This document shows positions 18,986 through 37,562 of a DNA stretch of 64,000 nt, piece by piece (within the stretch, counting starts at the first letter, position 1; each line of letters opens with the position of its first letter). A program made the position numbers and the translations under genes. Source of the stretch: Eubacteriales bacterium (GTDB lineage: Bacteria; Bacillota; Clostridia; Oscillospirales; Butyricicoccaceae); assembly GCA_030539335.1 (NCBI GenBank), contig JAUNSG010000011.1:19238-83237 (forward strand), given 5' to 3'. The notes under the pieces are model-generated. The model saw nothing but the letters and a program-made list of their open reading frames with translations. It did no database searches and had not been told where the DNA came from.

Positions 18986-19006
18986 ATATCGAAGGATAAA
19001 AAGTAC

Positions 19007-19048: not shown

Positions 19049-19066
19049 AAAGTGAGGGCGGTTGAT

Positions 19067-19846: not shown

Positions 19847-19909
19847 CGGTATGCATACCGATAAAAAAAGAAGCTGCATCGAGACAGCATCGATGCTGCT
19901 TCTTTCCTT

Positions 19910-20638: not shown

Positions 20639-20659
20639 GGTGCGCCCTCCTTTGTGTGA

Positions 20660-21187
20660 TTAAAATTCGATTCCTTCGCGGCTGGGCTGGCCACGATCAA
20701 ATGGATGCTTTATCTTGCAGATGTGGGATACATAATCCGCGTGACGCAGCAGGGTATCGCTGGGATTTTGTCCGGTAAGGATCACTTCCAGGTGGGATGG
20801 ACGATGGATCAGACAGGAAATCAGCTCTTCTTCGGCGATCAGGCCGGAAGCCACCGCGTAGACGGATTCATCTAGGAAGAGAAGATCGTATTCCGTGGAC
20901 CGGGCAAAGAGGTCCTTCAACAGCATGCGGTAGTGTTGAATGGTTTCCTCCCGCTCCGCGGGCGTCATTTGAAAGCTGAATTTTACATTGTCCGGTCCGT
21001 TTAACCGGGTTACGTTCGGCAGATGAGAAAGGGAACGGATCTCACCGGTGGAATTATCTTTCAAAAATTGATAGATCAGCACACGTTTTCCGCGCCCGGC
21101 GGCACGGATGCACAATCCCATTCCGGCGCTGGTTTTTCCTTTCCCGTCGCCGCAGTAGATGTGAATACAGCCTTTTTGTGTTTTCAT
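20660..21187 (-). CDS. cobO: cob(I)alamin/corrinoid adenosyltransferase (CobO/BtuR type)
   Basis: IHIYCGDGKGKTSA, QFLK, LDE, EVILTG, HPFDRG...REGIEF. Confidence 0.92.
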   Translation of the reverse strand: MKTQKGCIHIYCGDGKGKTSAGMGLCIRAAGRGKRVLIYQFLKDNSTGEIRSLSHLPNVTRLNGPDNVKFSFQMTPAEREETIQHYRMLLKDLFARSTEYDLLFLDESVYAVASGLIAEEELISCLIHRPSHLEVILTGQNPSDTLLRHADYVSHICKIKHPFDRGQPSREGIEF

Positions 21188-21255
21188 AGGGAAGCCTCCT
21201 GTTATATTTGTCCATAAAATGGGGACATTTTATTGATTTTCCAGCAAAAATGGTG

Positions 21256-21274
21256 TAGTATATTAGAGTATTAA
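21256..21274. promoter_or_regulatory. degenerate operator copy between cobO and gntR (possible autoregulation)
   Basis: TAGTATATTAGAGTATTAA; one mismatch to the TAATATATTA palindrome. Confidence 0.45.
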
Positions 21275-21320
21275 AATTGTGAGGATATAGAAAAATTATA
21301 TTGTATTGAGGAGTAAAACA

Positions 21321-22004
21321 ATGGCAGAGCTGAAAAGAAAGCGAGGACAGAATCGCACGGAAGTATATAACACGCTGAAGGATTCGATTCAATATCTGGA
21401 ACTGATGCCGGGATCGATTATCCACGAAAACGAATTGATCGAGCAGCTTGGTGTCAGCCGCACCCCCATTCGGGAAGCGCTGATCCGTCTGTCCAATGAG
21501 TACATGGTAGAGGTATATCCGCAGAGAGGTACATATGTATCAGCGATTGATTTCCATCTGGCACATGAGATTGCCTATATGCGGCACATTCTGGATACCG
21601 AAGTTTGTATGACTCTATGTAAAGGCAAGGTTCCGCTTCAGGATGCAGTGGATCAGGAGCTGTATTTTATGTCGCAGTGCGTAAAGAAGCAGGATGTTGT
21701 CGGATACATCAAGCACGACAATGCGTTCCATAATGAGATTTTTCGCGTGGCCGGTCACGAGATGATTTGGGAAATTATCTCGAATTCCCGCGCCCATTAC
21801 AATCGCATGCTCACATTGGATCTCCGACGTCCCGGCGTTCTGGAAAAATCGTATCAGGAGCATCAGGACATTGTCCGTGCGATTGAGAGCGGAGATGAGA
21901 CGGCATTGATGCAGATTTTGGACCGCCATCATGACCATCAAGATATGGAACGGCGTGAGGCGGAGATCCGTGCGATGTTTCCCGACTATTTTGCAAATGA
22001 ATAA
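21321..22004 (+). CDS. GntR-family regulator (FCD domain)
   Basis: ELIEQLGVSRTPIREAL winged HTH; DNAFHNEI FCD motif. Confidence 0.95.
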   Translation: MAELKRKRGQNRTEVYNTLKDSIQYLELMPGSIIHENELIEQLGVSRTPIREALIRLSNEYMVEVYPQRGTYVSAIDFHLAHEIAYMRHILDTEVCMTLCKGKVPLQDAVDQELYFMSQCVKKQDVVGYIKHDNAFHNEIFRVAGHEMIWEIISNSRAHYNRMLTLDLRRPGVLEKSYQEHQDIVRAIESGDETALMQILDRHHDHQDMERREAEIRAMFPDYFANE

Positions 22005-22060
22005 CGGATTCTGAGCTGTGGCAATGCTGCAGCTCTTTGTTTGGAAAAGAGAAATAACGC

Positions 22061-22097
22061 TTGACATCGGAATAATAATATATTAATATATTAATAT
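22061..22097 (+). promoter_or_regulatory. sigmaA promoter with extended operator (iolB-like)
   Basis: TTGACA 22061-22066, N17, TAATAT 22084-22089; TAATATATTAATATATTAATAT (two overlapping palindromes). Confidence 0.82.
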
Positions 22098-22147
22098 CGA
22101 AATTGCAAGAGGCTTGCGAAAAAAATAAAATGTAGGAGGCGAAATCA

Positions 22148-22939
22148 ATGTATATTGATAAGGAATGTGTGCGCGGCTACAACGAGTATATCCGCTGCGA
22201 TGTCAACAACGGAGAAAACAGCTATATGGATGTCGCGTTGCTTATCATGGAGGATGGAGATACGTATTCCTTCCATGAAAAAGAGAAAGAAATGGCATGG
22301 ATCCTGTTCCAGGGCAAAGCGACTGTGGAATATGACGGCAAGACGGTAGAGATGGATCGCCCGAATCCCTTTGACTACAGCACCTACTGCCTTCATCTCG
22401 CGGCCGGCGGGTCGTGCAAGCTGACGGCACACGACCATTGTGAGTTTTATGTGCAGAAGACCTACAATGATAAGAAGTTTGAGAATCATTTGTATCTGCC
22501 GGAGGAGACCGATACCTGGCGCAGAGGCGCCGACGGGGAATGTGCCGGATGCATCAAGCGTGACGTCCGCACCAGCTTTGACTATGAGATCAATCCGCTG
22601 TCCAACATGGTTCTGGGCGAGGTGGTCAATCTTCCGGGCAAGTGGTCTTCCTACCCGCCGCACTGGCATCCGCAGCCGGAGGTTTATTTCTATCACTTTG
22701 AGAAGAAGGAGGGCTTTGGCGCAGGCTGGGTAGACGGCAAGCTGGAGGAGCTGCATCACAACGGCCTCGCCATCATCACCAAGGATACGCACTCCATGGT
22801 GATGGCGCCGGGATATGCATGCTGTTACGCATGGGGAATCCGCCATCTGCCGGACAATCCCTGGAAGAAGACCCGCATTGATGATCCGGTCCATGAGTGG
22901 CTGTATGATCCGCAGGCGGAGTTCTGGAAGGGAGAGTAA
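22148..22939 (+). CDS. IolB-like (5-deoxy-glucuronate isomerase/KduI cupin family) isomerase
   Basis: GEVVNLPGKWSSYPPHWH, EVYFY, TH..V.APGY. Confidence 0.85.
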   Translation: MYIDKECVRGYNEYIRCDVNNGENSYMDVALLIMEDGDTYSFHEKEKEMAWILFQGKATVEYDGKTVEMDRPNPFDYSTYCLHLAAGGSCKLTAHDHCEFYVQKTYNDKKFENHLYLPEETDTWRRGADGECAGCIKRDVRTSFDYEINPLSNMVLGEVVNLPGKWSSYPPHWHPQPEVYFYHFEKKEGFGAGWVDGKLEELHHNGLAIITKDTHSMVMAPGYACCYAWGIRHLPDNPWKKTRIDDPVHEWLYDPQAEFWKGE

Positions 22940-23180
22940 TCTTGCGTTGTACTTGTACAAATCCTGACTGTCCGCTGCATCCCACCAGACGGCTGTACGC
23001 CGTGCATGGAGAAAAATCTGCGGCGCCGGGATTGGACTTCGCGGAGTTGGTTTTGAAAAACAGAGATCAATAAAGTCGACAGCACGGTATAACATGAGAG
23101 AACCACCGAAAAAATAAATACACAATAGCAAAGAGAAATCCTCTGCATGGGAAGAGACGCAACCATACAGAGGATTTTCT

Positions 23181-23675
23181 TTAGTTTGGTGTAGTTTCGT
23201 CGGAGTCAGAACGATCGGATGGCAAAGCGTGTGGCGTTGGGATTGGAAGACGAAGAAAAACGGTAAAGATGGAAGATACGATACCAATGCCCAAAGCCAG
23301 CGTACCTGCAATTCCAATGGTGTGAATACCGGTGTACAATGCGAGCATGGTGGAATTTTGGATGCAATACAACATGGTTTGATAGATTCCGCCGCCCGGA
23401 ACAAGAGGAATGAGGGAGACGGCGAGAAAAATACTGACCGGAGCATGCAGCGTCCGTGCACAGCACTCGGAATACAGCGTGATACCGATAGCCGCCAGAA
23501 AGTAACATGGGATACTGCTGGAGGAAAACGGGATGCCGCTCAGCGCGTAAATTAACCAACCGAGCATTCCGCCAAAGGCGGAAAACAGGAGCTTTCGCCC
23601 GGAAATTTGAAAGATAATACCGAAGCATAGGCTCGCAAAAAAGCTCATGGTGCATTCGTAGAGTATATTAACCAT
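23181..23675 (-). CDS. ThrE-family exporter, small subunit
   Basis: FGGMLGW, IPLVPGG; coupled to the upstream ThrE-family gene. Confidence 0.85.
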   Translation of the reverse strand: MVNILYECTMSFFASLCFGIIFQISGRKLLFSAFGGMLGWLIYALSGIPFSSSSIPCYFLAAIGITLYSECCARTLHAPVSIFLAVSLIPLVPGGGIYQTMLYCIQNSTMLALYTGIHTIGIAGTLALGIGIVSSIFTVFLRLPIPTPHALPSDRSDSDETTPN

Positions 23676-24438
23676 ATAACCCTCCCAAAAGAGTCAGGAT
23701 GCTGAGAGGAAGCGCAACACCAACAGCAATTCCGGCAGCGACCAGCAGGGCTTCGGCGAATTTGCTGATTCCAGCCATCACGTCACCGGCAACCAGGTCG
23801 CGGATTGCATTGGTGATCGGCAGCCCGGGAACAAGGAACATGATAGACCCGATAATCACATTGCTATAGGTGGGGATGAATCGCAGGCGATAACAGCATA
23901 CCGCGGCAAGCGAAACCCAGGCCGCGCTGATGATATGGATAAACAATCCATTGAAGCGCAAACGCTGCATACCAGAGTGGATCAGCCAGAGAATGATACC
24001 GATCCCAAAGGCACTTACGGCTTCAAAGAGAGATCCATGAAACAGCAAGGTGAAGAAAAAGCCGATACCGCCGGTGGCAAGACAGAGGTAATGGTTCGGA
24101 AACGTACAGCTTCCCGCGATTTCCGCAATGCGGGAATCGATTTTTCGGTAGTCCATAGGAGACGAACAGATTTCACGACAGAGAGAGTTTAGCTGATCCA
24201 ATTTGCCAAGATTGGTTCCGCGGTGATGTATTCTGCGCACACGGGTGACCGGCTGTGCCCCATCCCGCACAAAGGAAGTGATGATTGCCGTCGGTACCGC
24301 ATAGACATTCGCTTCCGTTGCACCGTAAGCAAAGCAGATGCGGGAGATGGATTCCTCTACTCGGTAGATTTCCGCTCCGTTTTCCAACAGAGCGGCGCCG
24401 ATGTTTACGGAGACCGTAATTAACTCAGAAGATGTCAT
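23668..24438 (-). CDS. ThrE-family threonine/serine exporter
   Basis: LLENGAEIYRVEESI, LVPGLPITNAIRDLVAGD; start MTSSE at 24438. Confidence 0.9.
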   Translation of the reverse strand: MTSSELITVSVNIGAALLENGAEIYRVEESISRICFAYGATEANVYAVPTAIITSFVRDGAQPVTRVRRIHHRGTNLGKLDQLNSLCREICSSPMDYRKIDSRIAEIAGSCTFPNHYLCLATGGIGFFFTLLFHGSLFEAVSAFGIGIILWLIHSGMQRLRFNGLFIHIISAAWVSLAAVCCYRLRFIPTYSNVIIGSIMFLVPGLPITNAIRDLVAGDVMAGISKFAEALLVAAGIAVGVALPLSILTLLGGLYG

Positions 24439-24590
24439 GATAAATCGTCGTCCTTTGGTTCGGAAAGAGTAATACAGTAGTATCATGAATGCCGGAGATT
24501 GTCAAGGTATTCCGTTGGAAAAGACAATTTGAGACAGGAAGAGAACAAAAATACAGACATACAAAAATAGGGAAAATTCCCCAATACTCC

Positions 24591-24624
24591 TTGACAAAAT
24601 GAGTGATATATATTAATATATTAG
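24591..24624 (+). promoter_or_regulatory. sigmaA promoter with operator (SSS symporter)
   Basis: TTGACA 24591-24596, N17, TAATAT 24614-24619; ATATATTAATATATTAG. Confidence 0.82.
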
Positions 24625-24756
24625 AGGATTACATGAGCTGCTGCAAACAGTGTTACATCGTACAACGAGAAAGGGTGTATGAGAAGGGAGCTTGAGGAGG
24701 TGTTGGCCCAGATCGGATAGAAAAAGAAGTAGAAACAGAAACGGAAGGAGAAAATA

Positions 24757-26496
24757 ATGAATTTTTTTAGTTCAATGGGATTCACGGCGGTATCGTTTCT
24801 TGCGTTTACCGTATTAGTTGCTGTAATTGCCTACTTTTACAGCAGAAATCGGGATATGAGCTCAGAGAGCGGATATTATCTGGCGGGCAGATCGCTGCCG
24901 GGTATTGTCATTGCCGGTTCGCTTATTATGACCGATTTATCGGCATCACAGCTGATTGGCAACAATGGACAATCGGTACAAGTCGGAATGGGCGTATTTG
25001 CGGCACAGGGATTTGGATTCTCTGGTATGATTCTGGTTGCACTGCTATTGGTTCCAAAATATTTGCAATCAGGAATCAGCACGATGCCGGAGTTTTATGA
25101 GCTTCGCTATGACAAATTCACCCGCAATTTGACCAGCATTATCATGATGATAAGTTATATTGTCGTTTTTCTGCCAAGCACCTTATATGCCGGCGCACAG
25201 GTATTCATCACGATTTTCAATGTAGATGGCATGCTGGGGATCTCTTACACAATGGCGATGACTATCATTTGTGTGATTATTGCGATCATCGGATTCTGTT
25301 ACGCGTTCTTTGGTGGTCTGAAGGCAATTGCAATGTCGGATACGATCAACGGCTTGGGAATGCTGGTTGGAGGCATTATAATAACGATTGCGGGAATGAT
25401 ATACCTGTCGAGTATATTAGGAGGAGACGGGTCGTTCCTAGACGGTTTGGATAAGTTCCTTCATACAGATCCTGCGATGATGAATATTATTAATGAAGCG
25501 GATTCCAACGAGCCGTGGTGGCCATGGCCGGTTATTTTAACCGGATTGACGGTAAATAACGTGTATTTCTGGGGCTGCGATCAGGCTATTGTCCAGCGCG
25601 CATTTGGAGCCAAGAGTATGGCCCATGCACAGAAGGGCATGATTTATGCCGGACTGTTGACATTGATCACCCCGTTTTTCCTGGTATTGCCGGGCATTAT
25701 TGCAAAATTTGTATTCACGGATATGGATTGGGCAACGAGTGGCGACCTTGCTTTCCCGATGCTGATTAATGCCGTACTGCCAAGGCCGGTTCTGGGATTC
25801 TTTGCAGCGTGTGTATTTGGCGCAATTATATCGACCTTCAATTCGTATTTGAACTCCGCATCTTCTATTTTTGCGATCAATATTTACAGCGATATTATTC
25901 ATCCGGAGGCGGATGAAAAGACCGTTGTTAAGTATGGCAGACTGTTTAGCGTCGTAGTTGCTGTCTGCGCGACCGCTATTGCGCCTTTCTTGGCGAATGT
26001 CAATGGTATTTTTTCATGGATGAATATGGCATTAGGTCTGTTTAATACACCAATTCTGATCATCACCTTGTTTGCGATCTTCTCAAAAAGAGCGCCTAGA
26101 TATCTGGGCAAGATTATCATTCCGATACATATTGTGATATATTTGCTGCTAAACTATCTGCTGCCGCATGTGATTCCGTTCTTTGGAACCATTCACTATA
26201 TGTATTACACGTTCGTACTATTTATTTTCGATGTCATTGTTTCGTTGATTGTCACGAAGATGAATCCGCTGGAGGAGGAGTACACGCTGCCAAACAACCC
26301 GCCGAAGGATATGGATCTGTCTCCATGGAAGTATCGAATTCATGCGTCGGTTGCGACACTGGCAATCGTGGCGATTATTTACGTTATATTCTCTCCGCTC
26401 GGATTCGGCAAGTGCGACGAGACGACCTGGGAGAGATACCAGAACAGCATGGACCGTTCTGCGGTTACCTGTGTCGTTGACCAGAGCGTACTATAA
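24757..26496 (+). CDS. sodium:solute symporter (YidK/SGLT-like)
   Basis: YYLAGRSL, STMPEFYELRY, YFWGCDQAIVQR, STFNSYLNS. Confidence 0.93.
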   Translation: MNFFSSMGFTAVSFLAFTVLVAVIAYFYSRNRDMSSESGYYLAGRSLPGIVIAGSLIMTDLSASQLIGNNGQSVQVGMGVFAAQGFGFSGMILVALLLVPKYLQSGISTMPEFYELRYDKFTRNLTSIIMMISYIVVFLPSTLYAGAQVFITIFNVDGMLGISYTMAMTIICVIIAIIGFCYAFFGGLKAIAMSDTINGLGMLVGGIIITIAGMIYLSSILGGDGSFLDGLDKFLHTDPAMMNIINEADSNEPWWPWPVILTGLTVNNVYFWGCDQAIVQRAFGAKSMAHAQKGMIYAGLLTLITPFFLVLPGIIAKFVFTDMDWATSGDLAFPMLINAVLPRPVLGFFAACVFGAIISTFNSYLNSASSIFAINIYSDIIHPEADEKTVVKYGRLFSVVVAVCATAIAPFLANVNGIFSWMNMALGLFNTPILIITLFAIFSKRAPRYLGKIIIPIHIVIYLLLNYLLPHVIPFFGTIHYMYYTFVLFIFDVIVSLIVTKMNPLEEEYTLPNNPPKDMDLSPWKYRIHASVATLAIVAIIYVIFSPLGFGKCDETTWERYQNSMDRSAVTCVVDQSVL

Positions 26497-26617
26497 TACG
26501 ACAATCCATTCGCAGCAGCATTCGCGAAGCACTAAGCTGTACCCGATATCTTCGGTACGGCTTGGTGCGCTGTTGGGGAATCCTAGCTGCTGTGTTGTGA
26601 AACGATGGAAACAGGGC

Positions 26618-26651
26618 TTGACAAGGAAAGATAAATATATTAATATATTAG
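26618..26651 (+). promoter_or_regulatory. sigmaA promoter with operator ([2Fe-2S] gene)
   Basis: TTGACA 26618-26623, N17, TAATAT 26641-26646; ATATATTAATATATTAG. Confidence 0.82.
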
Positions 26652-26695
26652 TTGGGAGTAAGAACTCACCGGATGAAATTATGGACGGAGGTGGC

Positions 26696-26986
26696 ATGAT
26701 GAAAATGCACGAGTATGTTGGTATCAAAAAGATGCCGAGAGGGAAGATGGTAATGTTTGAGTTCAATGGAAACCGGCTGTTTGGGCACGAAGGGGAACCG
26801 ATCTGTGTGACACTGGTTACGGAGGAACGGATTCATTCCTGTTTGAAGGATCGACCGTGCAATTCGTTCTGCAAAGTGGGAGATTGCAGAAAGTGTGCCA
26901 TGCTGGTGGATGGAGAGGTGCAGCACTATACTTGTTTGAAGCCAATCCGGGAGGGAATGGTTGTGAAGACGATGTGCAGTTGCTAG
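26696..26986 (+). CDS. small [2Fe-2S] protein (HcnA / sarcosine oxidase alpha N-terminal type)
   Basis: 96 aa from ATG 26696 after GGAGGT; FEFNG..GHEGEPI, FCKVGDCRKC..VDG..TCLKPIREGM. Confidence 0.75.
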   Translation: MMKMHEYVGIKKMPRGKMVMFEFNGNRLFGHEGEPICVTLVTEERIHSCLKDRPCNSFCKVGDCRKCAMLVDGEVQHYTCLKPIREGMVVKTMCSC

Positions 26987-27116
26987 TGTGCTGCAAATGT
27001 AAAATGCCAAACCACTTTTCTTTCTTCATTGCCGCGCTGTCCGTCCTTGGGCAGTGCGGCAGATTTTATCTTGGGACCATTGACAGGGAGCGGGAGGGCG
27101 CCGAAAGCCAACGCCA

Positions 27117-27178: not shown

Positions 27179-28132
27179 TTATGCCCCGGTCCCTCCGACG
27201 TTTACACGCAGACCGGAACGTTCCCAATACTCCTTGGCCTTCTGAATGGCCTCGTCCGTCGGAGGTTCCATCGTTTCACAGGAATAATCTCGATAGAGCG
27301 CAGACCACTTGTTGGAGCCCATCTGGTGGAAGGGAAGAATATGAATATCCTCAATGGAATTGTCTGCTGCAATGCGGGCGATCGTTTCGAGCATTGCGTC
27401 ACCGGTATTGACACCGGGGATCATTGGATATCGTAAAATCACGCGCGTCCCTTTGCGCCGCAAGCTTTCCAGATTGCAGAGGATCGGTTGGAATTGCTGG
27501 CCGGTTTGCGGAACGCTTGCACGGTCATCCGGAACCTTGATATCAAAAAGAACCAGATTGACATGATCCGTCACCTGGGTAAAACGTTCCGGCGCACAAA
27601 AGCCGCAGGTCTCAATCGCAGTGTGGATACCGGCGACCTGTAAACGGCGGAGCAGTTCCGAGGCAAAGGGGGCATACGTGGTACATTCGCCGCCGCTTAA
27701 TGTGACGCCTCCGCCGCTTTTTTCATAAAATACCTGATCGCGGATTGCGATGTCAAAGACTTCGTCCACGGACATCAGCGCGCCGGATACCTTCAGTGCG
27801 CCGGGATAGCAGGCTTCCGCACACTGTCCGCACCGTTTGCATTTTGTGACGTCGATGGAAATGCCTGCCTCGCCGACGGAAAGTGCGCCGTTTTTGCAGG
27901 TGCGGATGCAGTTTCCGCAGCCGATGCAATTGTCCTTGAAGTACATCAATTCCGGGGCCTGGCGCCAGGTCTCAGGGTTCTGGCACCAGCGGCAGCGGAG
28001 AGGACAACCTTTGAAAAAAACCATGGTGCGGATTCCGGGACCATCGTGAACCGTAAAGCGTTGAATATCAGTGACAACCGCCAGACGACCGTCTTTGATC
28101 TGTTCCCGTTGGGTCTGGTAAGTGTTCATCAT
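27179..28132 (-). CDS. glycyl-radical enzyme activating enzyme (radical SAM with ferredoxin insertion)
   Basis: QRFTVHDGPGIRT, CPLRCRWCQNPE, two CxxCxxCxxxC motifs, GGVTLSGGE; ATG at 28132 after GAGGTGA. Confidence 0.95.
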   Translation of the reverse strand: MMNTYQTQREQIKDGRLAVVTDIQRFTVHDGPGIRTMVFFKGCPLRCRWCQNPETWRQAPELMYFKDNCIGCGNCIRTCKNGALSVGEAGISIDVTKCKRCGQCAEACYPGALKVSGALMSVDEVFDIAIRDQVFYEKSGGGVTLSGGECTTYAPFASELLRRLQVAGIHTAIETCGFCAPERFTQVTDHVNLVLFDIKVPDDRASVPQTGQQFQPILCNLESLRRKGTRVILRYPMIPGVNTGDAMLETIARIAADNSIEDIHILPFHQMGSNKWSALYRDYSCETMEPPTDEAIQKAKEYWERSGLRVNVGGTGA

Positions 28133-28155
28133 ATGTAGGATCACCTCTTAGAATT

Positions 28156-28186
28156 ATGGGCTGTGTGCGAACAGCACACAGCCCAT
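28156..28186. other. perfect 13-bp hairpin between GRE and activase
   Basis: ATGGGCTGTGTGC-GAACA-GCACACAGCCCAT. Confidence 0.7.
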
Positions 28187-28209
28187 GGTTCGGTTTTCTG
28201 TGTTCAGCA

Positions 28210-30522
28210 TCAGATGCTGTGTTTGGTACGGTTGATAATGATTTCCTGCTGTGTTCGGGAAAGCGCAATGAAGTAAGCGGACAATCCGCCCAGATGGACA
28301 CGCAGGCCAGGATATTTTTCCGGGTGCTCCTGCGCATCCCGCAGCATCTCGGTGCTTGTGCCGGTGACCGTCATCATGATACCGCCGAGGTCGATAAACG
28401 ATTCGATCAGGGACTGGACGCGCTTGACGCCTTCCTCGCCTGCCAGCTCGTCGGAATTGATCTGCATATCGAGCGGACCGCCGGAATAATACGGCATGAT
28501 GTCCGGATGTGTGATGGACTTGATGACAGCGGTCGGCCCGTGAAGGTCAAGTCCGACGGACGGGGAGTAGTTGCTGCTTACGGTCTCCATAGAATGGCGG
28601 CCGTCCGCGGAAGCGCCGCAGCGGTGGCCAAAGTTTGCATAGCTCTCAAACGTGCCGCAGCCTACGTTGACAATGAAACCATTTTCCGCCTTTTCCTTGA
28701 CATCCGGCTGTGCGGCGCGCTCGTTGACGATGATCTCGAAATCCTTCATCAGGCGGGATGCAATCTCATCTGCCTCTGGATCGTCGTTGCCGAATTTCGG
28801 CGCGCGGTTGATGAGCATCTGCCGGAGGGCCTCCTGCCCCTTGAAATCGGTCCGAAGCGCTTTCCGGAGAGCCTCCATCGTCAATGTTTTCTCATCGTAG
28901 ACGAACTTCTTAATGGCAATCAGGGAATCCACACAATTGGCAAGGCCGGTCAGGAGGAAGGTATAAATGCTGTACTTTGCACCGCCGTTGGCGATATCCA
29001 ATCCTTGCGGGATGCAGTTATCGAGGAATGCGGAGAACAGTACGGATGGAGCAATCTTATAGCGCTCCTGCCAATAGCTGATTCGCAGATTCATAATGCG
29101 GTCAACATCATAACGGATCGAATCCAGAAAAGCTGCGTACAGATCTTCAAAGGTCTTAAACTGCAGCGGATCGCCGAAGGAAGGCGCTTCCTTGACGCCA
29201 CGCGCCATGCTTACACCTTCGTTCAAAAGGTATTCCAACAGCAGCAGAACCTGAATATGGCCATACTGGTAGTTGGTTTTGCCCGGAATCAGGACCTCCC
29301 AGCAACCATCGTTGGAATAGCAGCGGGCTTCCTCAAGCGGGATACCGGACTTCACCAGGCCATGGATGATCGGTTCGTCGTTGTAAATGGTCGGTTCACC
29401 GCTTCCGGTCCGCAGGATTCTTGCGCACATTTCATATAGCTTTTTCGGGCTGTTTTTGTGGAACCGAACAGACATAACCGGAGAGACAAGCTCAAAATAG
29501 TTCCACTGTTTGAGGATCATATAGGTCAATTCGTTGGTGGCATCCGAGCCGTCGGCCTTTACGCCACCGAGGATGACATTCTGCTCCCAATGGTTTGCGG
29601 AGGTGCCGAGGTTGTACTCCTCTGCATTCTCCATGGAAAAGACATTGTCGGCTTCATCCAGACAGCCGCCGTCATAGTTTTCGTCAACTGCGGTCATGTG
29701 ATCGAATTCCCAATGGGAGGAATCCATCTGGACACGCTCCGAGAATTTGACCAGCCAACTGCCGGTCAACTCCTCCGCCTGCTCTACGGTAATTGCACCG
29801 GATTCGATGTCTTTCTTATAGTACGGATAGAAATACTGATCGGGACGTCCGACAGCAACCTCTTCCATGCAGCTATGTAGGCTGAGGAAAAAGAAGAAAA
29901 AGCTCTGAAGCGCTTCGTGATAGCTTTCTGCCGGATATTCTGGCACTTTGTTGCAGATGCGAGCCATTTCCAGAAGCTCCTTGGCACGGGCCGGATCGGA
30001 TTCCCGATTTGCCTGACGAAGGCACATCTCTGCGTATCGGTGGGCGATGTCAACTACCGAATCCACACTGATAATCATTGCACGCCACAGATTGATTTTT
30101 TCCTGATCCGGGGAATCCTTTTGCAGTTCTGCTTCGACGGCCTGATAGATTTCTTCCTTGATGCCGCGGATACCGACGCGGAGCAGCTTCTCATAGTCGG
30201 CGGGATGTTTTGCCGCAACATTTTTCTCGGTAAAACCGGACTTTAAACCAGCTTCCTTTTCCTCCGGAAGAGCATACTGCGGAAATTCACGCCCGTAGCC
30301 GACAGACAGCATGTTGATTTTTCCGACAATCAGTTCATCGGACTTTAGCTCTGCCGGCATGTGACGCAGCAGGTGTTGGATGGCCAATGCTTTTCGAACA
30401 ACCAGTGGCTCTGCCTTGATCTCATCCGAGGTCAAGATGGTTTCATCCTTTCCCCACCATTCAATCTTCGTATAGTAGTCTTTTTTAAACAGACGTTCCT
30501 TGATTTTCTCCATTCGGGTCAT
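28210..30522 (-). CDS. glycyl radical enzyme, divergent uncharacterised subfamily
   Basis: 770 aa PFL2-like landmarks (GRPDQYFYPYY, PKFGNDD, ADGR); Cys loop NDGCWE (C407); Gly loop RVHLGGLSAYF (G746); adjacent activase. Confidence 0.88.
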   Translation of the reverse strand: MTRMEKIKERLFKKDYYTKIEWWGKDETILTSDEIKAEPLVVRKALAIQHLLRHMPAELKSDELIVGKINMLSVGYGREFPQYALPEEKEAGLKSGFTEKNVAAKHPADYEKLLRVGIRGIKEEIYQAVEAELQKDSPDQEKINLWRAMIISVDSVVDIAHRYAEMCLRQANRESDPARAKELLEMARICNKVPEYPAESYHEALQSFFFFFLSLHSCMEEVAVGRPDQYFYPYYKKDIESGAITVEQAEELTGSWLVKFSERVQMDSSHWEFDHMTAVDENYDGGCLDEADNVFSMENAEEYNLGTSANHWEQNVILGGVKADGSDATNELTYMILKQWNYFELVSPVMSVRFHKNSPKKLYEMCARILRTGSGEPTIYNDEPIIHGLVKSGIPLEEARCYSNDGCWEVLIPGKTNYQYGHIQVLLLLEYLLNEGVSMARGVKEAPSFGDPLQFKTFEDLYAAFLDSIRYDVDRIMNLRISYWQERYKIAPSVLFSAFLDNCIPQGLDIANGGAKYSIYTFLLTGLANCVDSLIAIKKFVYDEKTLTMEALRKALRTDFKGQEALRQMLINRAPKFGNDDPEADEIASRLMKDFEIIVNERAAQPDVKEKAENGFIVNVGCGTFESYANFGHRCGASADGRHSMETVSSNYSPSVGLDLHGPTAVIKSITHPDIMPYYSGGPLDMQINSDELAGEEGVKRVQSLIESFIDLGGIMMTVTGTSTEMLRDAQEHPEKYPGLRVHLGGLSAYFIALSRTQQEIIINRTKHSI

Positions 30523-30703
30523 AGTGAGTATCTCCTTTTCAAGCGGTTCAAAAACCTATGGTTTTGTTTCGGTTTGCCGTGCACGGATATCCATTTTGCA
30601 CTTGCCATCATCTGCATTTGATATTATAATTATATTACCTAAAAATGCACGATAATATAATTATAGTTGCGTATTTTTATATTATTCTATCAAAGGAGGG
30701 TGT

Positions 30704-31591
30704 ATGAGAAATTTTCAAATAGACCATACGCTGAAGGAGTCTCTGACCTATCATTCCGAAACCTTTCCGATTGAAACCTGTGTTGACCGGTATGATCTTC
30801 TTCCGGACCATACACTCAACTGCCATTGGCATGATGAATTTGAATTTGGGCTGCTGCTTTCCGGAGAGCTGGATTACAGCATCAGCGGGTATCAGACACG
30901 ATTGCAGCGCGGCGACTGCGTTTTTATCAATTCCGGGACAATGCATATGGCGCAGCAAGCGCCGGGCTGTCACAATGCCAATATGTTTATCATCGCGTTT
31001 TCCCATGCCTTTCTGACGGAGAATATGGATGGGGTGATTTATCAGAAATACTTCCGCCCGGCGTTGAAAAATCCGTTCCCAGGATTTGTACTGACAGGGG
31101 AGAGCGAAGTAAGGGAAGAAATTGCTTCCTATCTCACGGAACTGTATCAGCTGGAAACGGAAGGGGAACAGTATGAATTGTTGTGTATCAGTTTGCTCTG
31201 CCGGTTATGGGGCGTTACGCTGTCTTATCTGAACCGGATTTCTCCGGATTTGGGTATCCAGTTGATCGATAGGACGAGCGAAGAACGGGCAAAGGCCATC
31301 ATGTATTATATTCGCCAGCATTACTCCGAGGGAATTACCATTGAAAGCATTTCACGCAGTGCGAATGTGAGTCAAAGCGAGTGTTTTCGGTCCTTTAAGA
31401 AGTACACACAGAAAACCCCGGTGACGTATTTGAATGAATATCGTTTGGCGCAGGCCGCGAAGCGCCTGCGGGAATCCTCGGCTTCCGTGACGGAGATCAG
31501 TTCCGCCTGCGGGTTTTCTCATTCCAGCTATTTCTGCAAGCTGTTTAAAGAAAAATATGGTATCTCACCGACAAAATTTCGGAAGAGCTGA
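30704..31591 (+). CDS. AraC-family regulator (cupin sensor), divergent from the GRE
   Basis: HWHDEFE cupin; C-terminal double HTH, CGFSHSSYF..FKEKYGISP. Confidence 0.93.
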   Translation: MRNFQIDHTLKESLTYHSETFPIETCVDRYDLLPDHTLNCHWHDEFEFGLLLSGELDYSISGYQTRLQRGDCVFINSGTMHMAQQAPGCHNANMFIIAFSHAFLTENMDGVIYQKYFRPALKNPFPGFVLTGESEVREEIASYLTELYQLETEGEQYELLCISLLCRLWGVTLSYLNRISPDLGIQLIDRTSEERAKAIMYYIRQHYSEGITIESISRSANVSQSECFRSFKKYTQKTPVTYLNEYRLAQAAKRLRESSASVTEISSACGFSHSSYFCKLFKEKYGISPTKFRKS

Positions 31592-31743: not shown

Positions 31744-32790
31744 TCAGTTGGCTGCCCGGTCTCTGGCTGCGATCACAGCGTCTACCACATCTGCTCCAGC
31801 TTTTTCCCGAACGAGCGGCCATACGTCAGCTTCCGCAACTTCTGCCATCCATTCATACGTTGCCTCATCCGGTTCAACGAATTCCATACCAGCATCCGTC
31901 AGAGCCTGAATGCTGGAATCGACCGATTCGTCTGCCATATCACGGCAGAGTGTAAGAAGTTCATCGCTCACTTCGTCGATGAGATCCTGATATTCCTTCG
32001 GCAGGCTGTCATAGAAGTCCTTATTGCACACCATTGTGATGTTATTATAGATATGATTGGTTGCACAATTGTATTTTTGCACCTCTGCGTATTTATTCAG
32101 CAGATTCTGGACATAGGAATCCTCCTGCGCATCCAGCAGACCTTGCTGCAGTGCAAGGAATACATCGCTGCGGTTCATCGGGGTCGGGTTTGCGCCAAGA
32201 GCCTTCCAGAAAGCAACATGGATGTCATTTGTCATCGTGCGGATATTCAGGTTCTTGAAGTCCTCTTTGGTTCGGAGTGGTGTGTTGCTTGTGGTCTCAC
32301 GGTACGCCTGATCGCCAATCATCAACAGCTTAATGCCCTTTTCCTCATATTTGCTGTTGAGCAGGCTGCGCAGCTCCGGGTCGTCAAAGGTTGCACGTCC
32401 AAGCTCAATGGTGTCGAACAAAGCGGGCATATCAAAAACATATGCTGCCGGAATATCTGTAGTGTGGTTGGCGCTATTGGATACGCCCATTTCGATCTGA
32501 CCACTTACAATATTCTCCATAACCTCTTTGTCACTGCCGAGCTGTCCAGCCGTATAGGCATCTACATGGATTGCGCCGTCGGATTTTTCTTCAACCAGAC
32601 GCTTAAACTCGGTAACGATTGTGCCGGTGATCGACTCTGTCGGTGCATCGCAGGAGATACTGAGCGAGTAAGTGCCCGAATCACTGCTGCCGCTTCCAGC
32701 AGCATCGCCGGTTGTCGACCCTCCGCAGGCCGTAAGTGCTGCGAGCATGCCGATAGATAATCCGGCGCATAACCATTTTCTCATTTTCAT
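31744..32790 (-). CDS. dctP: TRAP transporter substrate-binding lipoprotein
   Basis: lipobox LTAC, GQLGSD, NIRTM, LQQGLLDAQE. Confidence 0.92.
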   Translation of the reverse strand: MKMRKWLCAGLSIGMLAALTACGGSTTGDAAGSGSSDSGTYSLSISCDAPTESITGTIVTEFKRLVEEKSDGAIHVDAYTAGQLGSDKEVMENIVSGQIEMGVSNSANHTTDIPAAYVFDMPALFDTIELGRATFDDPELRSLLNSKYEEKGIKLLMIGDQAYRETTSNTPLRTKEDFKNLNIRTMTNDIHVAFWKALGANPTPMNRSDVFLALQQGLLDAQEDSYVQNLLNKYAEVQKYNCATNHIYNNITMVCNKDFYDSLPKEYQDLIDEVSDELLTLCRDMADESVDSSIQALTDAGMEFVEPDEATYEWMAEVAEADVWPLVREKAGADVVDAVIAARDRAAN

Positions 32791-32820
32791 TATAGGTGTC
32801 TCCTTTCATTTACAAATTGC

Positions 32821-34116
32821 TTAAGTGAGGCCAGGCAGCAACAAGCTGACCGGCGGAACAAACGTGATAATCAATTGGATTACAAAGAATACGAGTGCAA
32901 AGGGAACTGCCTTTTTGGCGATCGACATAACCGGCACCTTGGTCAGTGTACTTGCAACATATAGATTGTTGCCGATGGGCGGGGTGACATAACCAATCGC
33001 CAGATTGCAGATCATGATTACACCAAAGTGGATCGGGTGGATGCCAACTACGGCGACGATCGGCTGAAGGATCGGCGCAAGGATTAAGATTGCAGGGCCG
33101 GTGTCCATTACCATGCCGACAAACAGCAGGAATATATTGATGACAAGCAGCAGTACGATTTTATTGGTAAAAATACTGCCGATGGTCGATGCAATGACCT
33201 GCGGTGCCTGCGTCATGGTGAGTACCTTGCCAAATGCAGAGGCAGAACACAGGATAAATAAGATCGGTGCATATGTTCCGATGGATTCCTGAATAATACG
33301 GGGAAGGTCAGAAAACTTTGCCGAACGATAAATAAACAGGGAAACAATCAACGCGTATACGACAGAGATTACGGCAGCTTCTGTCGGGGTGACAAAGCCT
33401 CCATAAATACCGCCAAGAATAATAACAGGGGATAGTAATGCCCAAAAACTGTCCTTAAATACGTTCCAAAGCCCCTGGCTGCGCAGCTGCTGCACGGTTT
33501 CTCGGATCTTTTCTTTGTCCTCGCCGTGCTTGCGGCAGTAAAAGATACAATATAGCATCAGTGCCGAACCAACCAGAATACCCGGGAGGACGCCGGCGAT
33601 AAACAGAGAACCAACCGAACTACTGGTCGCCATGCAATAAAGGATGAACGGGATTGATGGCGGAATAATAATGCCCAAGCTTCCGGATACCGCAACCAAA
33701 GCAGTGCAGAACGGCAGATCATATCCCATAGCAACTAGAATCGGAATGGTCATAGAACCGACTGCGGCCGTAGTCGCTGGGCCAGAACCGGAAATTGCAC
33801 CATAGAACAGACAGGTGATAACGACTGCACAGGGCATGCCCGCGGTCTTATCTCCGATGAAATACGAGAAGATGTTAAAAATCTTTTTTGAAATTCCTCC
33901 GCGAGCCATCACAACACCGGAAAAGACAAACATTGGGATGGCAAGCAGGGGATTGCTGTTGATGCCGGTGACCATCTGACGGAGTAGGAAAACGGCGTCC
34001 GCAGCAAAATGCGGGTTGAGGAAGGTGGGGATAAAAGAAATCATGGCAAGGACGACGGAAATTGGTACTGCAATCAAAAGCAATACGATCATTGCCAGAA
34101 ATACTGGGGTTAGCAT
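32821..34116 (-). CDS. dctM: TRAP transporter large permease
   Basis: LLAIPMF, ISGSGPATTAAVG, IIIPPSIP, TPTEAA, GYVTPPIG. Confidence 0.95.
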   Translation of the reverse strand: MLTPVFLAMIVLLLIAVPISVVLAMISFIPTFLNPHFAADAVFLLRQMVTGINSNPLLAIPMFVFSGVVMARGGISKKIFNIFSYFIGDKTAGMPCAVVITCLFYGAISGSGPATTAAVGSMTIPILVAMGYDLPFCTALVAVSGSLGIIIPPSIPFILYCMATSSSVGSLFIAGVLPGILVGSALMLYCIFYCRKHGEDKEKIRETVQQLRSQGLWNVFKDSFWALLSPVIILGGIYGGFVTPTEAAVISVVYALIVSLFIYRSAKFSDLPRIIQESIGTYAPILFILCSASAFGKVLTMTQAPQVIASTIGSIFTNKIVLLLVINIFLLFVGMVMDTGPAILILAPILQPIVAVVGIHPIHFGVIMICNLAIGYVTPPIGNNLYVASTLTKVPVMSIAKKAVPFALVFFVIQLIITFVPPVSLLLPGLT

Positions 34117-34646
34117 TCGTTTTCACCTCCTTTTTCCATCGAGGCTTCTTCCTGCGAAGGATCCCAATGGAATTCATCACCTGTTTTGAAATGTCGTATA
34201 ATGCGGAACACATTTTGTGCCGCGCGGATCGTGGAAAGCGCACAGCCGATTAAAACAGATGCGTAAACATATACCATCGGCAGCCCCAGAGCGGGCGTTA
34301 TCTGCTGCGTATTGCTCAGCAATGCGAGGGAATAGGTGGTCAGCAGCCCGAAAAATACCATTACCAGAATCTGCGTTAAGAGCAGGACCGCATTGCGGAC
34401 CAGGCGGGGAAACGCTGCGACCAGCATCGTCAGTCGCATGGCTGTATTTCGGCGCAGTGTGTAGCTTACGCTGAGAAAACCGGACCAAACCAGCAGGATG
34501 CAGGATAATTCCTCCGCCCACGTAAGCGAGTTTTGGAAAACATACCGCATGATGATCTGTACCACCATGACAATTGTTATTGCAATGAGCAGCACCGCTA
34601 ATAACAATTCTTCGAGGTGGCGGTCCAGCCATTTTATTACCTTCAT
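34110..34646 (-). CDS. dctQ: TRAP transporter small permease
   Basis: QIIMRYVF, WAEEL; four TM helices. Confidence 0.9.
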   Translation of the reverse strand: MKVIKWLDRHLEELLLAVLLIAITIVMVVQIIMRYVFQNSLTWAEELSCILLVWSGFLSVSYTLRRNTAMRLTMLVAAFPRLVRNAVLLLTQILVMVFFGLLTTYSLALLSNTQQITPALGLPMVYVYASVLIGCALSTIRAAQNVFRIIRHFKTGDEFHWDPSQEEASMEKGGENEC

Positions 34647-34670
34647 GGGAAACCTCCTTACTTGTGTACT

Positions 34671-35267
34671 TTAAAATCCGAGATCCTCATCAACCAGTAT
34701 GACTTCCGAAGGCGTATGGTTTGGGGCACGATCGAGGATCAGAGTACAGCAGCAAATACGTTCTTTACCGCTGCAGTTGTAGCATTTTGGTGTCTCTCCC
34801 ACGGCGCATGGGGTTTTTGTACCCATGCGCCGTGCATTGAGCGGACCGGAAATCTGCTGCGCCCGAAGAAGGGCAGCATCCCGCGTCGACACAATTTTGT
34901 TGCGTCCCACCACATAGTAGACCTTTTCGGGGCCATACAGCATCATGGCCAGCCGGTTTCCCGCCCCATCGATGCAGACGATTTCACCGGTTTCTGAGAT
35001 GGCGTTCACACTGGTAATATAGATGCTGCACTGTGCCGCCAGATGTTTTACTTCATCACCGGCTATTTCGTGGTGCCATACCGTAACATTGTGCGCAGAT
35101 AACGCCTCATACAGTCCCATCTGTCGGACGGTAACACTTCCGCCAAAACCAATGGTTCTGCCAGAAAGGCATTGGGTAAGATAAGCCGTCGCCTGGACAT
35201 GGTCACGAAATGTGGATACCATAAACCCATGTGCTTCCAGTGCGTGCTGAATGTTGCTGTAATCCAT
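34671..35267 (-). CDS. LUD-domain (LutC/YkgG-like) protein
   Basis: GFGGSVT, SVNAISETGEIVCIDGAGNR, VGRNKIV, CxxCxxxxxxC tail. Confidence 0.85.
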   Translation of the reverse strand: MDYSNIQHALEAHGFMVSTFRDHVQATAYLTQCLSGRTIGFGGSVTVRQMGLYEALSAHNVTVWHHEIAGDEVKHLAAQCSIYITSVNAISETGEIVCIDGAGNRLAMMLYGPEKVYYVVGRNKIVSTRDAALLRAQQISGPLNARRMGTKTPCAVGETPKCYNCSGKERICCCTLILDRAPNHTPSEVILVDEDLGF

Positions 35268-35309
35268 AGCCGCCTCCTGTCCGATCCTTCTCCATGCATT
35301 GTCGGAGAT

Positions 35310-36197
35310 TTAGTCATTCCGTTCAATGCCAGACATTTTTTCGATAAGCTTCACAATACTCCAATTGTCGCCACCTGGCATGACGTTGATACCTGCCTGG
35401 AACATTTCGCGGCTGACCACTGCACACGGTGCAGGAACGCCCAGCTGCTTTGCAATCTCAACGCTCAACGTGATGTCCTTTTTCATTGTTGCGATGTGGC
35501 TGCCGGTATCCACAAATTTACGGTTAATGATCTTTTCTGTGGTGTTTTTGGTGAGTGCGCTGCCGATAATGCTTTCATTGAGCACTTTGGCAAACTGATT
35601 CAGATCCAGTTCAGCCTTTTCCGCCAGGACCATTGCTTCAAACAGTCCCTCGTAGGTTGAGCCCATAAACAACTGGATGCCCAGCTTCACCATCTGACCG
35701 TCACCCATGCGGGAGCCGACATGATAGATCTTTTCCTCATCGCCGATCGCACGCAGGACATCCATATTCTCGGAGATGACCTCTGCGTCACCTGCCGCCA
35801 TCAGGGAGAGCGTTCCGTCATTAGAACGGAAACGGCCACCGCTGACCGGCATGTCCACAACATGGATGCCACGCTCCTCCAATGGCTTTGCCTGACGTTG
35901 GATAAACCATGGTCCGATTGTCGCGGTAATAAATACGGTCGATCCAGGAGTGAGCACATCGGTCACGTCCGCCAGCACACCATCGACATGTTCGCCGTTC
36001 ATGACCATGATGAACAGAACATCCACATCGCGCGCGGTATCCGCCGTCGACTCTGCGAGCTTGCCGCCCGCTTTTACAAAATTCTCCCGGCGATCTTCAC
36101 GCAGGTCGTATCCCTTGATATCGAACCCTGCCTTCAGGATATTTTTTGCCATACCCATGCCCATATCGCCTAAACCAACAAATCCAACCTTTTTCAT
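35310..36197 (-). CDS. beta-hydroxyacid dehydrogenase (3-hydroxyisobutyrate DH family, LtnD-like)
   Basis: GFVGLGDMG, DMPVSGG, GQMVKLGIQLFMG, KDI. Confidence 0.88.
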   Translation of the reverse strand: MKKVGFVGLGDMGMGMAKNILKAGFDIKGYDLREDRRENFVKAGGKLAESTADTARDVDVLFIMVMNGEHVDGVLADVTDVLTPGSTVFITATIGPWFIQRQAKPLEERGIHVVDMPVSGGRFRSNDGTLSLMAAGDAEVISENMDVLRAIGDEEKIYHVGSRMGDGQMVKLGIQLFMGSTYEGLFEAMVLAEKAELDLNQFAKVLNESIIGSALTKNTTEKIINRKFVDTGSHIATMKKDITLSVEIAKQLGVPAPCAVVSREMFQAGINVMPGGDNWSIVKLIEKMSGIERND

Positions 36198-36216
36198 AAA
36201 AAGCTCCTCCGATCAA

Positions 36217-37125
36217 TCAATTAAAAATTTCCTGCAGATGCCGGATATCAATCCGGTAACCATCCAGACAGGTGCCGCCATCCGGACAATAGATGTTTTC
36301 GAGTGAGATGCATCCTTCATATCCATCACGTCGCAACGCCTGTGCAAGCGGCTCTAAATATGGTCCCAATTGACCGGTGCCAATCTCGCGGATGCCCATG
36401 TACGAGCGGCTGATGCTCAGTTCCGCATCTTTCACATGAATATGGGCCAAGATATCGCGGATCATTTCATAGGTTTCGAGGGTCGGCATTTCCCCATAAT
36501 ACATTGCATTGGACAAATCCCATAGATACTTTATTCGGCTCGATCCGAGATCATCGGCAAGTTTACGCATCAAGTAGGAAGAGCAAATCTGCCCATTTCC
36601 GTTTTCAACGACAAGGTCCATTTCTTCCGCCTCTGCCAGTTCGACTATCGGACGGTATAGGGTCAGCAGCTTATCCCATACGGTGTTATCGTTGGCCAGC
36701 CACTCTCTCGCACCGTGGTCACCAAAAGTAACCGGCTGTTTTGCAAAGCACATCACCCGCACCAGGGGAGCGCCCAGCACCTTCGCAAAGAAAATTGCGT
36801 TTTTTAACAGCTTCATATGGAGCTCATAAACCGCATCCCCGCATTCGGTGGAACGGATCGGAACGCCGCAAAACGCATGGCTGGTGATAATTGCCGGCTG
36901 GATTCCATAGCGGTCTGAGATTTCTTTGAGCCGGTAGGCTTCCTCGGCAACCAGTGTTTCGACAGGTACGCCGGGTACACTCCGTTTTTCGCCGCTGCAC
37001 AGCGTAGGATCCTGTATGCCATCCACGTGCTGGATTTCTGCGTAACTTATCCCGGTTTCTTTTAGGATTCGGCAGGACTCTTCGTAGTCCCCGCTGATTC
37101 CGTTTGTGATCGCTGTAATTTTCAT
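36217..37125 (-). CDS. sugar-phosphate isomerase/epimerase (xylose-isomerase-like TIM barrel)
   Basis: LVVEN, WDLSN, HIHVKD, ISLE metal ligands. Confidence 0.85.
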   Translation of the reverse strand: MKITAITNGISGDYEESCRILKETGISYAEIQHVDGIQDPTLCSGEKRSVPGVPVETLVAEEAYRLKEISDRYGIQPAIITSHAFCGVPIRSTECGDAVYELHMKLLKNAIFFAKVLGAPLVRVMCFAKQPVTFGDHGAREWLANDNTVWDKLLTLYRPIVELAEAEEMDLVVENGNGQICSSYLMRKLADDLGSSRIKYLWDLSNAMYYGEMPTLETYEMIRDILAHIHVKDAELSISRSYMGIREIGTGQLGPYLEPLAQALRRDGYEGCISLENIYCPDGGTCLDGYRIDIRHLQEIFN

Positions 37126-37562
37126 TCAAGGCCTCCTTTTCGTAATTGGTCAAAATGTATGAATTCCAGGTTTTATTTCTCCTGTGTTTTGTGTTTTTAG
37201 TATATCAGTGATTCCTTTATTAAGAAATGGATTATCGTCTGATGTTTGATCGCTTTTTGGATTCGTGAGATTTCGGAACTTTTCTTGTTCATTATCCGGC
37301 TTGTTTCGGAAAATTCCCCGTTTTTTGTCCGATTATTGGGGAAATAAAAAAATTCGGGCTTCGGTTTTCGTGAAGCCCGTTTGGATTTCTATCGTATTAT
37401 CTTCGCAAACTATTCCAATATTTTACATGGATATTGAATACATTGAATGATTATGTATTGACATTTTGTTTATTTGTTGTGTAAACTGTATATAGACAAG
37501 CATAAATCATGTCTTTTGTATGTTTATTTTGGTTCATTTTGTAGGAAAAGGAGGTTTGCTAC

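Follow-up and report, generated by a model that had tools for sequence, protein, structure and literature searches.

What is to be made of a glycyl radical enzyme (GRE) whose two loops depart from the sequences by which such enzymes are usually recognised? The question is raised by a gene at positions 28,210 to 30,522 of a 64,000-nucleotide stretch of DNA, here called the window, from a bacterium of the Eubacteriales (Butyricicoccaceae; contig JAUNSG010000011.1 of assembly GCA_030539335.1). An original prediction, made by a model from the letters of the window, described a highly divergent GRE with non-canonical Gly and Cys loops. It proposed an uncharacterised class with new chemistry, of eliminase or decarboxylase type. 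The answer developed below, to which we give about an even chance, is that the gene encodes a functional GRE of a large clade, named ‘CWE’ after its NDGCWE Cys loop, which performs a dehydratase-type 1,2-elimination as one branch of a wider catabolic island.

The open reading frame (ORF) is open on the minus strand only and encodes 770 amino acids, starting from an ATG at 30522 with a ribosome-binding site (AAGGAG) 8 nt 5' of it. Pfam recognises the product through both the PFL-like (PF02901, 471 bits) and the Gly_radical (PF01228, 53 bits against a cut-off of 22) families. The loops are indeed as they had been described. The Cys loop reads YSNDGC407WE409, with one Cys followed by Trp and no Cys-Cys pair of the formate-lyases (PFL, TdcE); the Cys-x-Glu motif of 1,2-eliminases and isomerases is present as C407-W408-E409. 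The C-terminal stretch reads EKYPGLRVH743LGG746LSAYF. HMMER alignments against glycerol dehydratase (GD, 1r8w) and propanediol dehydratase (PD, 5i2a) match G746, free of indels, to the radical Gly and pair His743 with the fingerprint Arg, Leu747 with Tyr and GCWE with GCVE. G746 is, therefore, the inferred radical site. In place of the usual HxQFN strand, residues 713-721 read GGIMMTVTG. Across 90 members of the family, N404, D405, C407, E409 and G746 are invariant, and W408 is conserved in at least 90%. The GRE fingerprint is RVxG[FWY] (PMC11528403), and the query (H-L-G-G-L) and its family (R-[ML]-G-G-[LW]) do not match it; in the query, three of the four specified positions are altered.

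Such a loop might belong to a decaying or non-catalytic homologue, in which the loss of RVxG[FWY] blocks activation. The rest of the evidence speaks against this. The protein spans its homologues end to end (100%), and its AlphaFold2 model, built with 90 relatives as input, reached a pLDDT of 94.6 and a pTM of 0.93, so that a PFL-like barrel fold is predicted with high confidence. A Foldseek search with this model returned TM-scores of 0.80-0.85 against 50 GRE chains, with GD and PD ranking first. Compared with an 84%-identical orthologue, nonsynonymous divergence (pN) is 0.10 per site and synonymous divergence (pS) is saturated. His743 persists across clusters that are 78-99% identical and has a second origin in P0074 and P0094. 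The dedicated, ferredoxin-containing activase, which the original prediction had also pointed out, keeps its DGPGIRT and CPLRCRWC (CxxxCxxC) motifs as well as eight Cys of the ferredoxin domain. It adjoins the GRE in 33 of the 38 non-redundant loci of the GGL group, to which the counts of recurring neighbours below refer, and an intact copy always lies beside the GRE in the close relatives (L081, L224, L225 and L226/L227). As the ORF is full-length, the fold is confident, pN is 0.10 with pS saturated and the activase is intact, decay is very unlikely, and we give it next to no weight. The gene is, thus, not degenerate; its product is an intact radical enzyme of the kind that oxygen harms.

The unusual loops are widely shared. 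At least 120 clusters, made at 90% identity and lying 43-99% identical to the query, all carry NDGCWE together with LRVR[LM]GG[LFY]SAYF. A DNA pattern for Y-x-NDGCWE, run against a species-genome collection, matched at least 120 loci, at least 109 of them GREs. The NDGCWE clade is deep and extends over many phyla and at least 109 species genomes. By the Gly loop and the strand preceding it, its loci fall into three groups. The group of the query has RVR[ML]GGL with xILTIT and is found in Bacillota, Spirochaetota and one Tetrasphaera. The second, with RVRMGGW[CS]AYF and xMMTLT, occurs in Chloroflexota, Planctomycetota and Armatimonadota. The third has a more canonical loop, VR[VI][SA]GWSARF, and is found in Kiritimatiellota, Lentisphaerota, Bacteroidota and others. 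Its near-canonical members (SVRVSGWSARF) include L100, L104, L106, L158, L164, L168, L171, L185 and L192, among others, and also reach into Planctomycetota and Nitrospirota. Since NDGCWE is combined there with a near-canonical Gly loop, the Trp of the Cys loop would have arisen before the changes in the Gly loop. G746 is kept in all clades, and G745 becomes Ala or Ser outside the GG subclades.

In two trees, all the CWE sequences were placed on one side of a single branch (SH-aLRT 100% and 99%). On the opposite side lie GD, PD, E. coli YbiW and PflD, the HpsG equivalog of the same genome and every canonical sequence; the fragments of GD and PD join the canonical CVE sequences, a 99% branch away from the query. 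The query, thus, does not cluster with any of these characterised GREs. As the Trp, the GG pair, the Tyr-to-Leu change and the loss of HxQFN are carried throughout this tree-supported clade, they are, judged by sequence, clade traits and not specific to one gene. The original prediction had treated the loops as oddities of a single gene; of these changes, Arg to His alone is special to the close relatives of the query.

Is this clade, then, a known class under another guise? The GRE is 22-29% identical to every solved GRE and falls below every NCBIfam cut-off. It scores 425 against 678 bits for the subfamily TIGR01774 (PFL2/glycerol dehydratase); the best equivalogs are HpsG (400 against 1000) and HypD (382 against 1100), followed by HpfG (344), CutC (340), PFL (62-291), indoleacetate decarboxylase (292) and HPAD (194), with equivalog cut-offs of 994-1150 bits. 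A review of June 2026 (PMC13450708) counts GD, PD, HpfG, HypD, HpyG, HpzG, CutC, IslA/IseG and HpsG as characterised eliminases and HplG, YbiW and PflD as characterised isomerases, while whole GRE clades remain without assignment. The CWE clade is absent from the characterised enzymes of that review, and a literature search for a description of the NDGCWE clade found none. By homology scores and phylogeny, it is an uncharacterised GRE lineage. This half of the original prediction stands; the other half, new chemistry, does not follow, as the Cys-x-Glu motif and the aldehyde-handling partners described below fit known 1,2-elimination.

One candidate function, a sulfonate C-S lyase of the IslA, IseG or HpsG kind, was rejected. 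In an alignment with the genome's own HpsG, an alignment of low confidence in its N-terminal part, the Arg/Gln/Arg sulfonate anchor corresponds to Thr98, Val102 and Gly621 of the query. The only other PFL-like gene of the genome is this genuine HpsG (NF048011, 1486 bits). It lies at G000:C32:146192-148138 (L211 1297-3873), together with an activase and a taurine/sulfonate-type ATP-binding cassette (ABC) ATPase, and two NIR_SIR sulfite-reductase-like genes are found elsewhere in the genome. Since it is of the type acting on 2,3-dihydroxypropane-1-sulfonate, the organism would also degrade sulfonates.

The closest characterised enzymes by both sequence (345 and 314 bits) and fold (Foldseek TM 0.84-0.85) are the B12-independent GD of Clostridium butyricum (1r8w) and the PD of Roseburia inulinivorans (5i2a/5i2g). 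The query shares with them its Cys-x-Glu loop, an activase of the ferredoxin type and partners that handle aldehydes. However, the identity is 27-29%, GCWE replaces GCVE, HLGGL replaces RVAGY and the HxQFN strand is gone; a family-specific insert is present at about residues 262-300, and the N-terminus is shorter in the query. The aminoacyl radical enzymes (PMC11528403) are another set of GRE homologues with a non-canonical radical loop. They have Ala, Ser or Thr in place of the radical Gly, whereas the query keeps Gly746 and the residue preceding it is also Gly.

Some changes are private to the close subclade. His743 occurs only in relatives at least 78% identical to the query and, independently, in P0074 and P0094; its codon pattern, which left out AGR codons for Arg741, matched one other species genome in the collection. 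No activase column covarying with Arg or His at 743 was found in a comparison that included only two His-type activases. The G-H motif with the general-acid His (His164 in GD, 166 in PD) becomes A-K, with Lys105 in its place. A His occupies this column in 43 of 63 canonical and 80 of 85 CWE sequences, and the GD residue is named in the review (PMC13450708). Further, Glu221 aligns to Ser282 and Glu313 to Tyr339 of GD, so that Ser/Ala and aromatic residues are replaced. We take Ser282 and Tyr339 to be substrate-contacting residues. In CutC, an acidic residue at the position of His164 binds the ammonium group of the substrate.

What chemistry the clade may perform is suggested by the Glu of the Cys loop and by its neighbours. 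CxE is retained in every characterised 1,2-eliminase and isomerase, and its Glu is hydrogen-bonded to the hydroxyl of the substrate (PMC13450708). Around the family GREs, parts of a ribose-type sugar ABC transporter recur in 7-14 of the 38 loci, aldehyde dehydrogenase (Aldedh) in 9, split transketolase in 6-7, AraC or GntR-FCD regulators in 7 or 6, tungsten aldehyde:ferredoxin oxidoreductase (AOR) and zinc alcohol dehydrogenase in 5 each and iron alcohol dehydrogenase in 3; PfkB, ROK, DeoC and a sodium:solute symporter (SSS) also recur. Homologues of the window's aldehyde dehydrogenase, 42-46% identical to it, flank family GREs in at least seven loci. The aldehyde-oxidising and aldehyde-reducing neighbours, taken with a Cys-x-Glu GRE, therefore point to a 1,2-eliminase making an aldehyde. 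In a similar manner, since transporters and kinases are among the neighbours, the substrate of the family looks like a sugar, polyol or cyclitol. The eliminase half of the predicted type is, thus, upheld, and the decarboxylase half finds no support.

CxE is equally kept in the isomerases, and the enzyme could instead be one of these, breaking a C-O or C-N bond within the ring of a non-phosphorylated anhydro-sugar, cyclitol or cyclic amine to give an isomeric keto product, as in YbiW, PflD and HplG. YbiW and PflD, which are 1,5-anhydrohexitol-6-phosphate C-O lyases, also act on sugars and carry CxE, and they share kinase and aldolase neighbours with a part of the CWE family. At some family loci the company of the GRE resembles the kinase and aldolase reactions downstream of YbiW and PflD: a sugar ABC importer, PfkB kinase and class II aldolase at L084, and ROK and DeoC at L089 and L175. 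However, these two have canonical loops (GCIE/GCVE and VVRVAGYSAFF) and phosphorylated substrates linked to the phosphotransferase system, and they lie outside the CWE clade, across the 99%-supported branch. The frequent Aldedh and AOR partners also suit an aldehyde product more than a ketose. An isomerase is, in our opinion, rather unlikely, though still a serious rival.

For the query itself, the proposed elimination can be set into a pathway with the help of its close relatives. The closest genome-resolved relative (L138 and L223, from one metagenome-assembled genome; GRE 78% identical) has a single string, AraC|GRE-activase-SDR-Aldedh, whose short-chain dehydrogenase/reductase (SDR) and aldehyde dehydrogenase are orthologues of two window genes (Table 1). 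At L225 (GRE 84%), orthologues of the B12 enzyme, ATPase, aminotransferase, alanine dehydrogenase and KduI/IolB genes, and of an alpha/beta hydrolase of the window (43%), all lie within 10 kb of AraC|GRE-activase. The class III aminotransferase and the alanine dehydrogenase are syntenic with the GRE in L225, L226 and L227; in L227, the aminotransferase (80%) comes after the activase, with a nucleoside 2-deoxyribosyltransferase-like gene (6510-6929) between the two. A GntR regulator (76%) adjoins AraC in L224, where an adh_short fragment follows the activase. At L002 (GRE 66%, Arg retained), the B12 enzyme (58%) and an aldehyde dehydrogenase are within 8 kb of the GRE. This variant island (404-8868) also includes two xylose-isomerase-like TIM barrels, a ROK protein and a GDSL esterase, and it has a Glu/Leu/Phe/Val-type amino-acid dehydrogenase in place of the aminotransferase and alanine dehydrogenase. 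A KduI/IolB-like homologue (39%) adjoins the GRE in L194. Homologues of the candidate importer (34%) occur by GREs of the sister subclade, adjacent and on the same strand in L155 and L174 and on the GRE locus in L139.

As the orthologues of the partner genes sit directly beside AraC|GRE-activase in close relatives, the GRE module and the neighbouring B12-enzyme cluster probably form one pathway. The GRE would then belong functionally with this cluster and not with the adjoining tripartite ATP-independent periplasmic (TRAP) transporter operon, a link which the original prediction had missed. The connection is a local one. A B12-enzyme homologue was found in 5 of 29 other GRE-bearing genomes, on which ground a family-wide link was rejected; the B12 link is, therefore, specific to the close subclade. 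The matches of the B12 enzyme in the PDB cover its B12-binding domain only, and its N-terminal ~460 residues are without a PDB sequence match.

Several observations weigh against this picture of an eliminase working within the island. L081, with an 84%-identical GRE, consists of AraC, GRE and activase only, with no partner genes nearby. The partner genes form an operator-marked regulon adjoining the GRE (10.3-26.7 kb of the window, with 22 operator matches in 10327-26650), and an operator search did not find this operator in the GRE/AraC1 intergenic region of either the window or L225. Inclusion of the GRE in the GntR operator regulon was, hence, rejected. Since the operator is missing at its promoter and the synteny with the partner genes is kept, the GRE arm would be switched separately by AraC while belonging to the same catabolic island. 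Within the enzyme itself, Lys105 stands for the general-acid His, Glu221 and Glu313 stand at the Ser282 and Tyr339 positions of GD, and His743 replaces the fingerprint Arg. In view of Lys105, Glu221 and Glu313, a plain diol dehydration is not assured.

These same residues invite another explanation, in which the enzyme is a heteroatom lyase that cleaves a C-N, or less likely a C-S or C-P, bond instead of dehydrating its substrate. Two variants may be considered. By analogy with the taurine route (Tpa, Ald, SarD, IslAB), where an aminotransferase, alanine dehydrogenase and reductase precede the GRE IslA, conversion of an amine to an alcohol would come first, and the group then expelled by the GRE would be one other than hydroxyl; in the other variant, it is the GRE that would remove the amino group of a vicinal amino alcohol. 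The island has the parts of the former: a class III aminotransferase and alanine dehydrogenase, syntenic as described, a reductase, the GRE with its activase, and an aldehyde dehydrogenase that scores alike against aminobutyraldehyde, betaine-aldehyde and sulfoacetaldehyde dehydrogenase models. Moreover, Lys105, Glu221 and Glu313 add charge at positions aligned with the substrate contacts of GD. However, the sulfonate ligands of HpsG and IslA are not kept, the HpsG score is far under its cut-off and a true HpsG is already in the genome. The remaining CWE clade, moreover, lies in sugar contexts. Such a lyase is unlikely, though it deserves serious consideration.

The second, B12-dependent radical enzyme co-located with the GRE could also hint at a reaction class new to GREs, or at a decarboxylase. 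A deep and separate clade, in which the Cys loop (ND-GC-W-E), the Gly loop and the strand preceding it have all been rebuilt, would suit this. Known chemistry nevertheless accounts for the CxE motif and the aldehyde-handling neighbours, and both a small subunit and an arylacetate context are absent. We regard this explanation as distinctly unlikely.

With sequence, fold, conserved residues, clade membership and synteny as the observed ground, and with each chemical step, by homology, and the identity of the substrate as inference, the elimination may be pictured as follows. The activase would place a radical on Gly746, which would pass to Cys407 as a thiyl radical. The thiyl would take a hydrogen from the hydroxyl-bearing (carbinol) carbon of the substrate, and Glu409 would deprotonate the substrate hydroxyl. 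A vicinal group, most likely a second hydroxyl, would then leave, and the hydrogen would be returned from Cys407. The aldehyde dehydrogenase would oxidise the carbonyl or aldehyde product, and the SDR would also act on it. The divergent AraC regulator would set the expression of the GRE, and the module would act as one arm of an island along with the B12-dependent enzyme, the aminotransferase and alanine dehydrogenase, and the KduI/IolB-like isomerase. In short, the GRE probably strips water or an amine from a sugar-like or amino-alcohol compound. Lys stands in for the general-acid His, the presumed pocket gains two Glu residues, and the partner enzymes are of an amine-handling kind. It may therefore be that the close subclade acts on an aminated or charged compound akin to a sugar, polyol or cyclitol, and that a group other than hydroxyl leaves.

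The features of the module and the island are collected in Table 1. The AraC gene, divergent from the GRE as had been predicted, has orthologues of 36-53% identity divergent from the GRE in L081, L138, L002, L090, L156 and L224-L227. The hairpin between the GRE and the activase may be an attenuator or an mRNA stabiliser that sets the ratio of the two proteins.

Table 1. Coordinates, in the window, of the GRE, its motifs, its regulatory module and the genes of the neighbouring island
Feature	Position	Strand	Evidence
NAD(P) aldehyde dehydrogenase, which probably uses the product of the GRE	10661-12052	+	79% orthologue in the L223 string
B12-binding enzyme, 591 aa	12191-13966	-	90% orthologue in L225
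Hydantoinase-A-like ATPase	13991-15931	-	46% orthologue in L225
Class III aminotransferase	16078-17493	-	82% orthologue in L225
Alanine dehydrogenase (AlaDH)	17788-18903	+	79% orthologue in L225
SDR oxidoreductase	19910-20638	-	67% orthologue directly after the activase in L223
KduI/IolB-like cupin isomerase	22148-22939	+	75% orthologue directly upstream of AraC|GRE in L225, L226
Sodium:solute symporter (YidK-like), candidate importer	24757-26496	+	NF007790, 561 bits
GRE-activating radical SAM enzyme with ferredoxin-like insert	27179-28144	-	TIGR02494, 331 bits against a cut-off of 174
Hairpin, perfect 18-bp stem, filling most of the 65-nt gap between GRE stop and activase start	28151-28191		Terminator-like scan
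Glycyl radical enzyme, 770 aa, NDGCWE (‘CWE’) clade	28210-30522	-	Pfam, AlphaFold2 model, Foldseek
Gly loop R741-V-H743-L-G745-G746-L747-S-A-Y-F	28270-28302	-	Translation; ungapped against RVAGYSA
Cys loop N404-D-G-C407-W-E409, putative thiyl Cys and catalytic Glu by alignment	29296-29313	-	Translation; matches GCVE of GD, PD, CutC
Divergent promoter region GRE/AraC1	30523-30703		Promoter-like TTGCCA-17-TATAAT at 30602-30630; no GntR-regulon operator
AraC-family regulator (cupin sensor and helix-turn-helix), divergent from GRE	30704-31591	+	Pfam

The surroundings hold some further genes. Besides the island genes of Table 1, the regulon region (9603-27000) includes CobA, GntR, ThrE and the alpha/beta hydrolase. 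A small 2Fe-2S (Fer2_4) ORF at 26636-26986 on the plus strand lies just past the last operator copy (26636) and is convergent with the activase; its product might supply electrons to a radical enzyme. On the other side of AraC1, the operon of TRAP, LUD, HIBADH and TIM-barrel genes (31744-37125) was considered as a partner of the GRE and rejected, as it has its own divergent AraC2 and no gene of it is syntenic with any family GRE. What the AraC2-controlled operon (31744-38459) encodes, namely a DctPQM TRAP transporter along with a LUD-domain protein, a HIBADH resembling L-threonate dehydrogenase and a xylose-isomerase-like TIM barrel, suggests a pathway for a tetronate or sugar acid.

The discovery of GREs has, in the past, revealed much of anaerobic metabolism, such as the transformation of choline into trimethylamine, the use of hydroxyproline, the release of H2S from sulfonates and the breakdown of anhydro-sugars. 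Spread over many phyla, with gut Clostridia among its hosts, the CWE clade does not follow the RVxG[FWY] pattern by which these enzymes are recognised. The query presents natural variants at two positions usually held to be essential, with the fingerprint Arg changed to His and the general-acid His to Lys. What is new here is this subclade, devoid of both residues, and its linkage to a B12 island. Its partner set, consisting of the AraC sensor, SDR, aldehyde dehydrogenase, aminotransferase and B12 enzyme, offers a tractable route to the substrate. A bolder proposal may be put forward tentatively, at somewhat less than an even chance. According to it, the close subclade (Lys105, Glu221, Glu313, His743) would be the glycyl-radical half of a pathway for an aminated polyol, cyclitol or amino alcohol, with an adenosylcobalamin (AdoCbl) enzyme as the other half. 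The elimination would act on a substrate, and possibly a leaving group, new to GREs, through a Gly loop without the fingerprint Arg, and the GREs of the NDGCWE clade would together form a new functional class that acts on sugars or polyols. If the B12 link is true, the organism would possess a catabolic route in which an AdoCbl-dependent and a glycyl radical enzyme are coupled.

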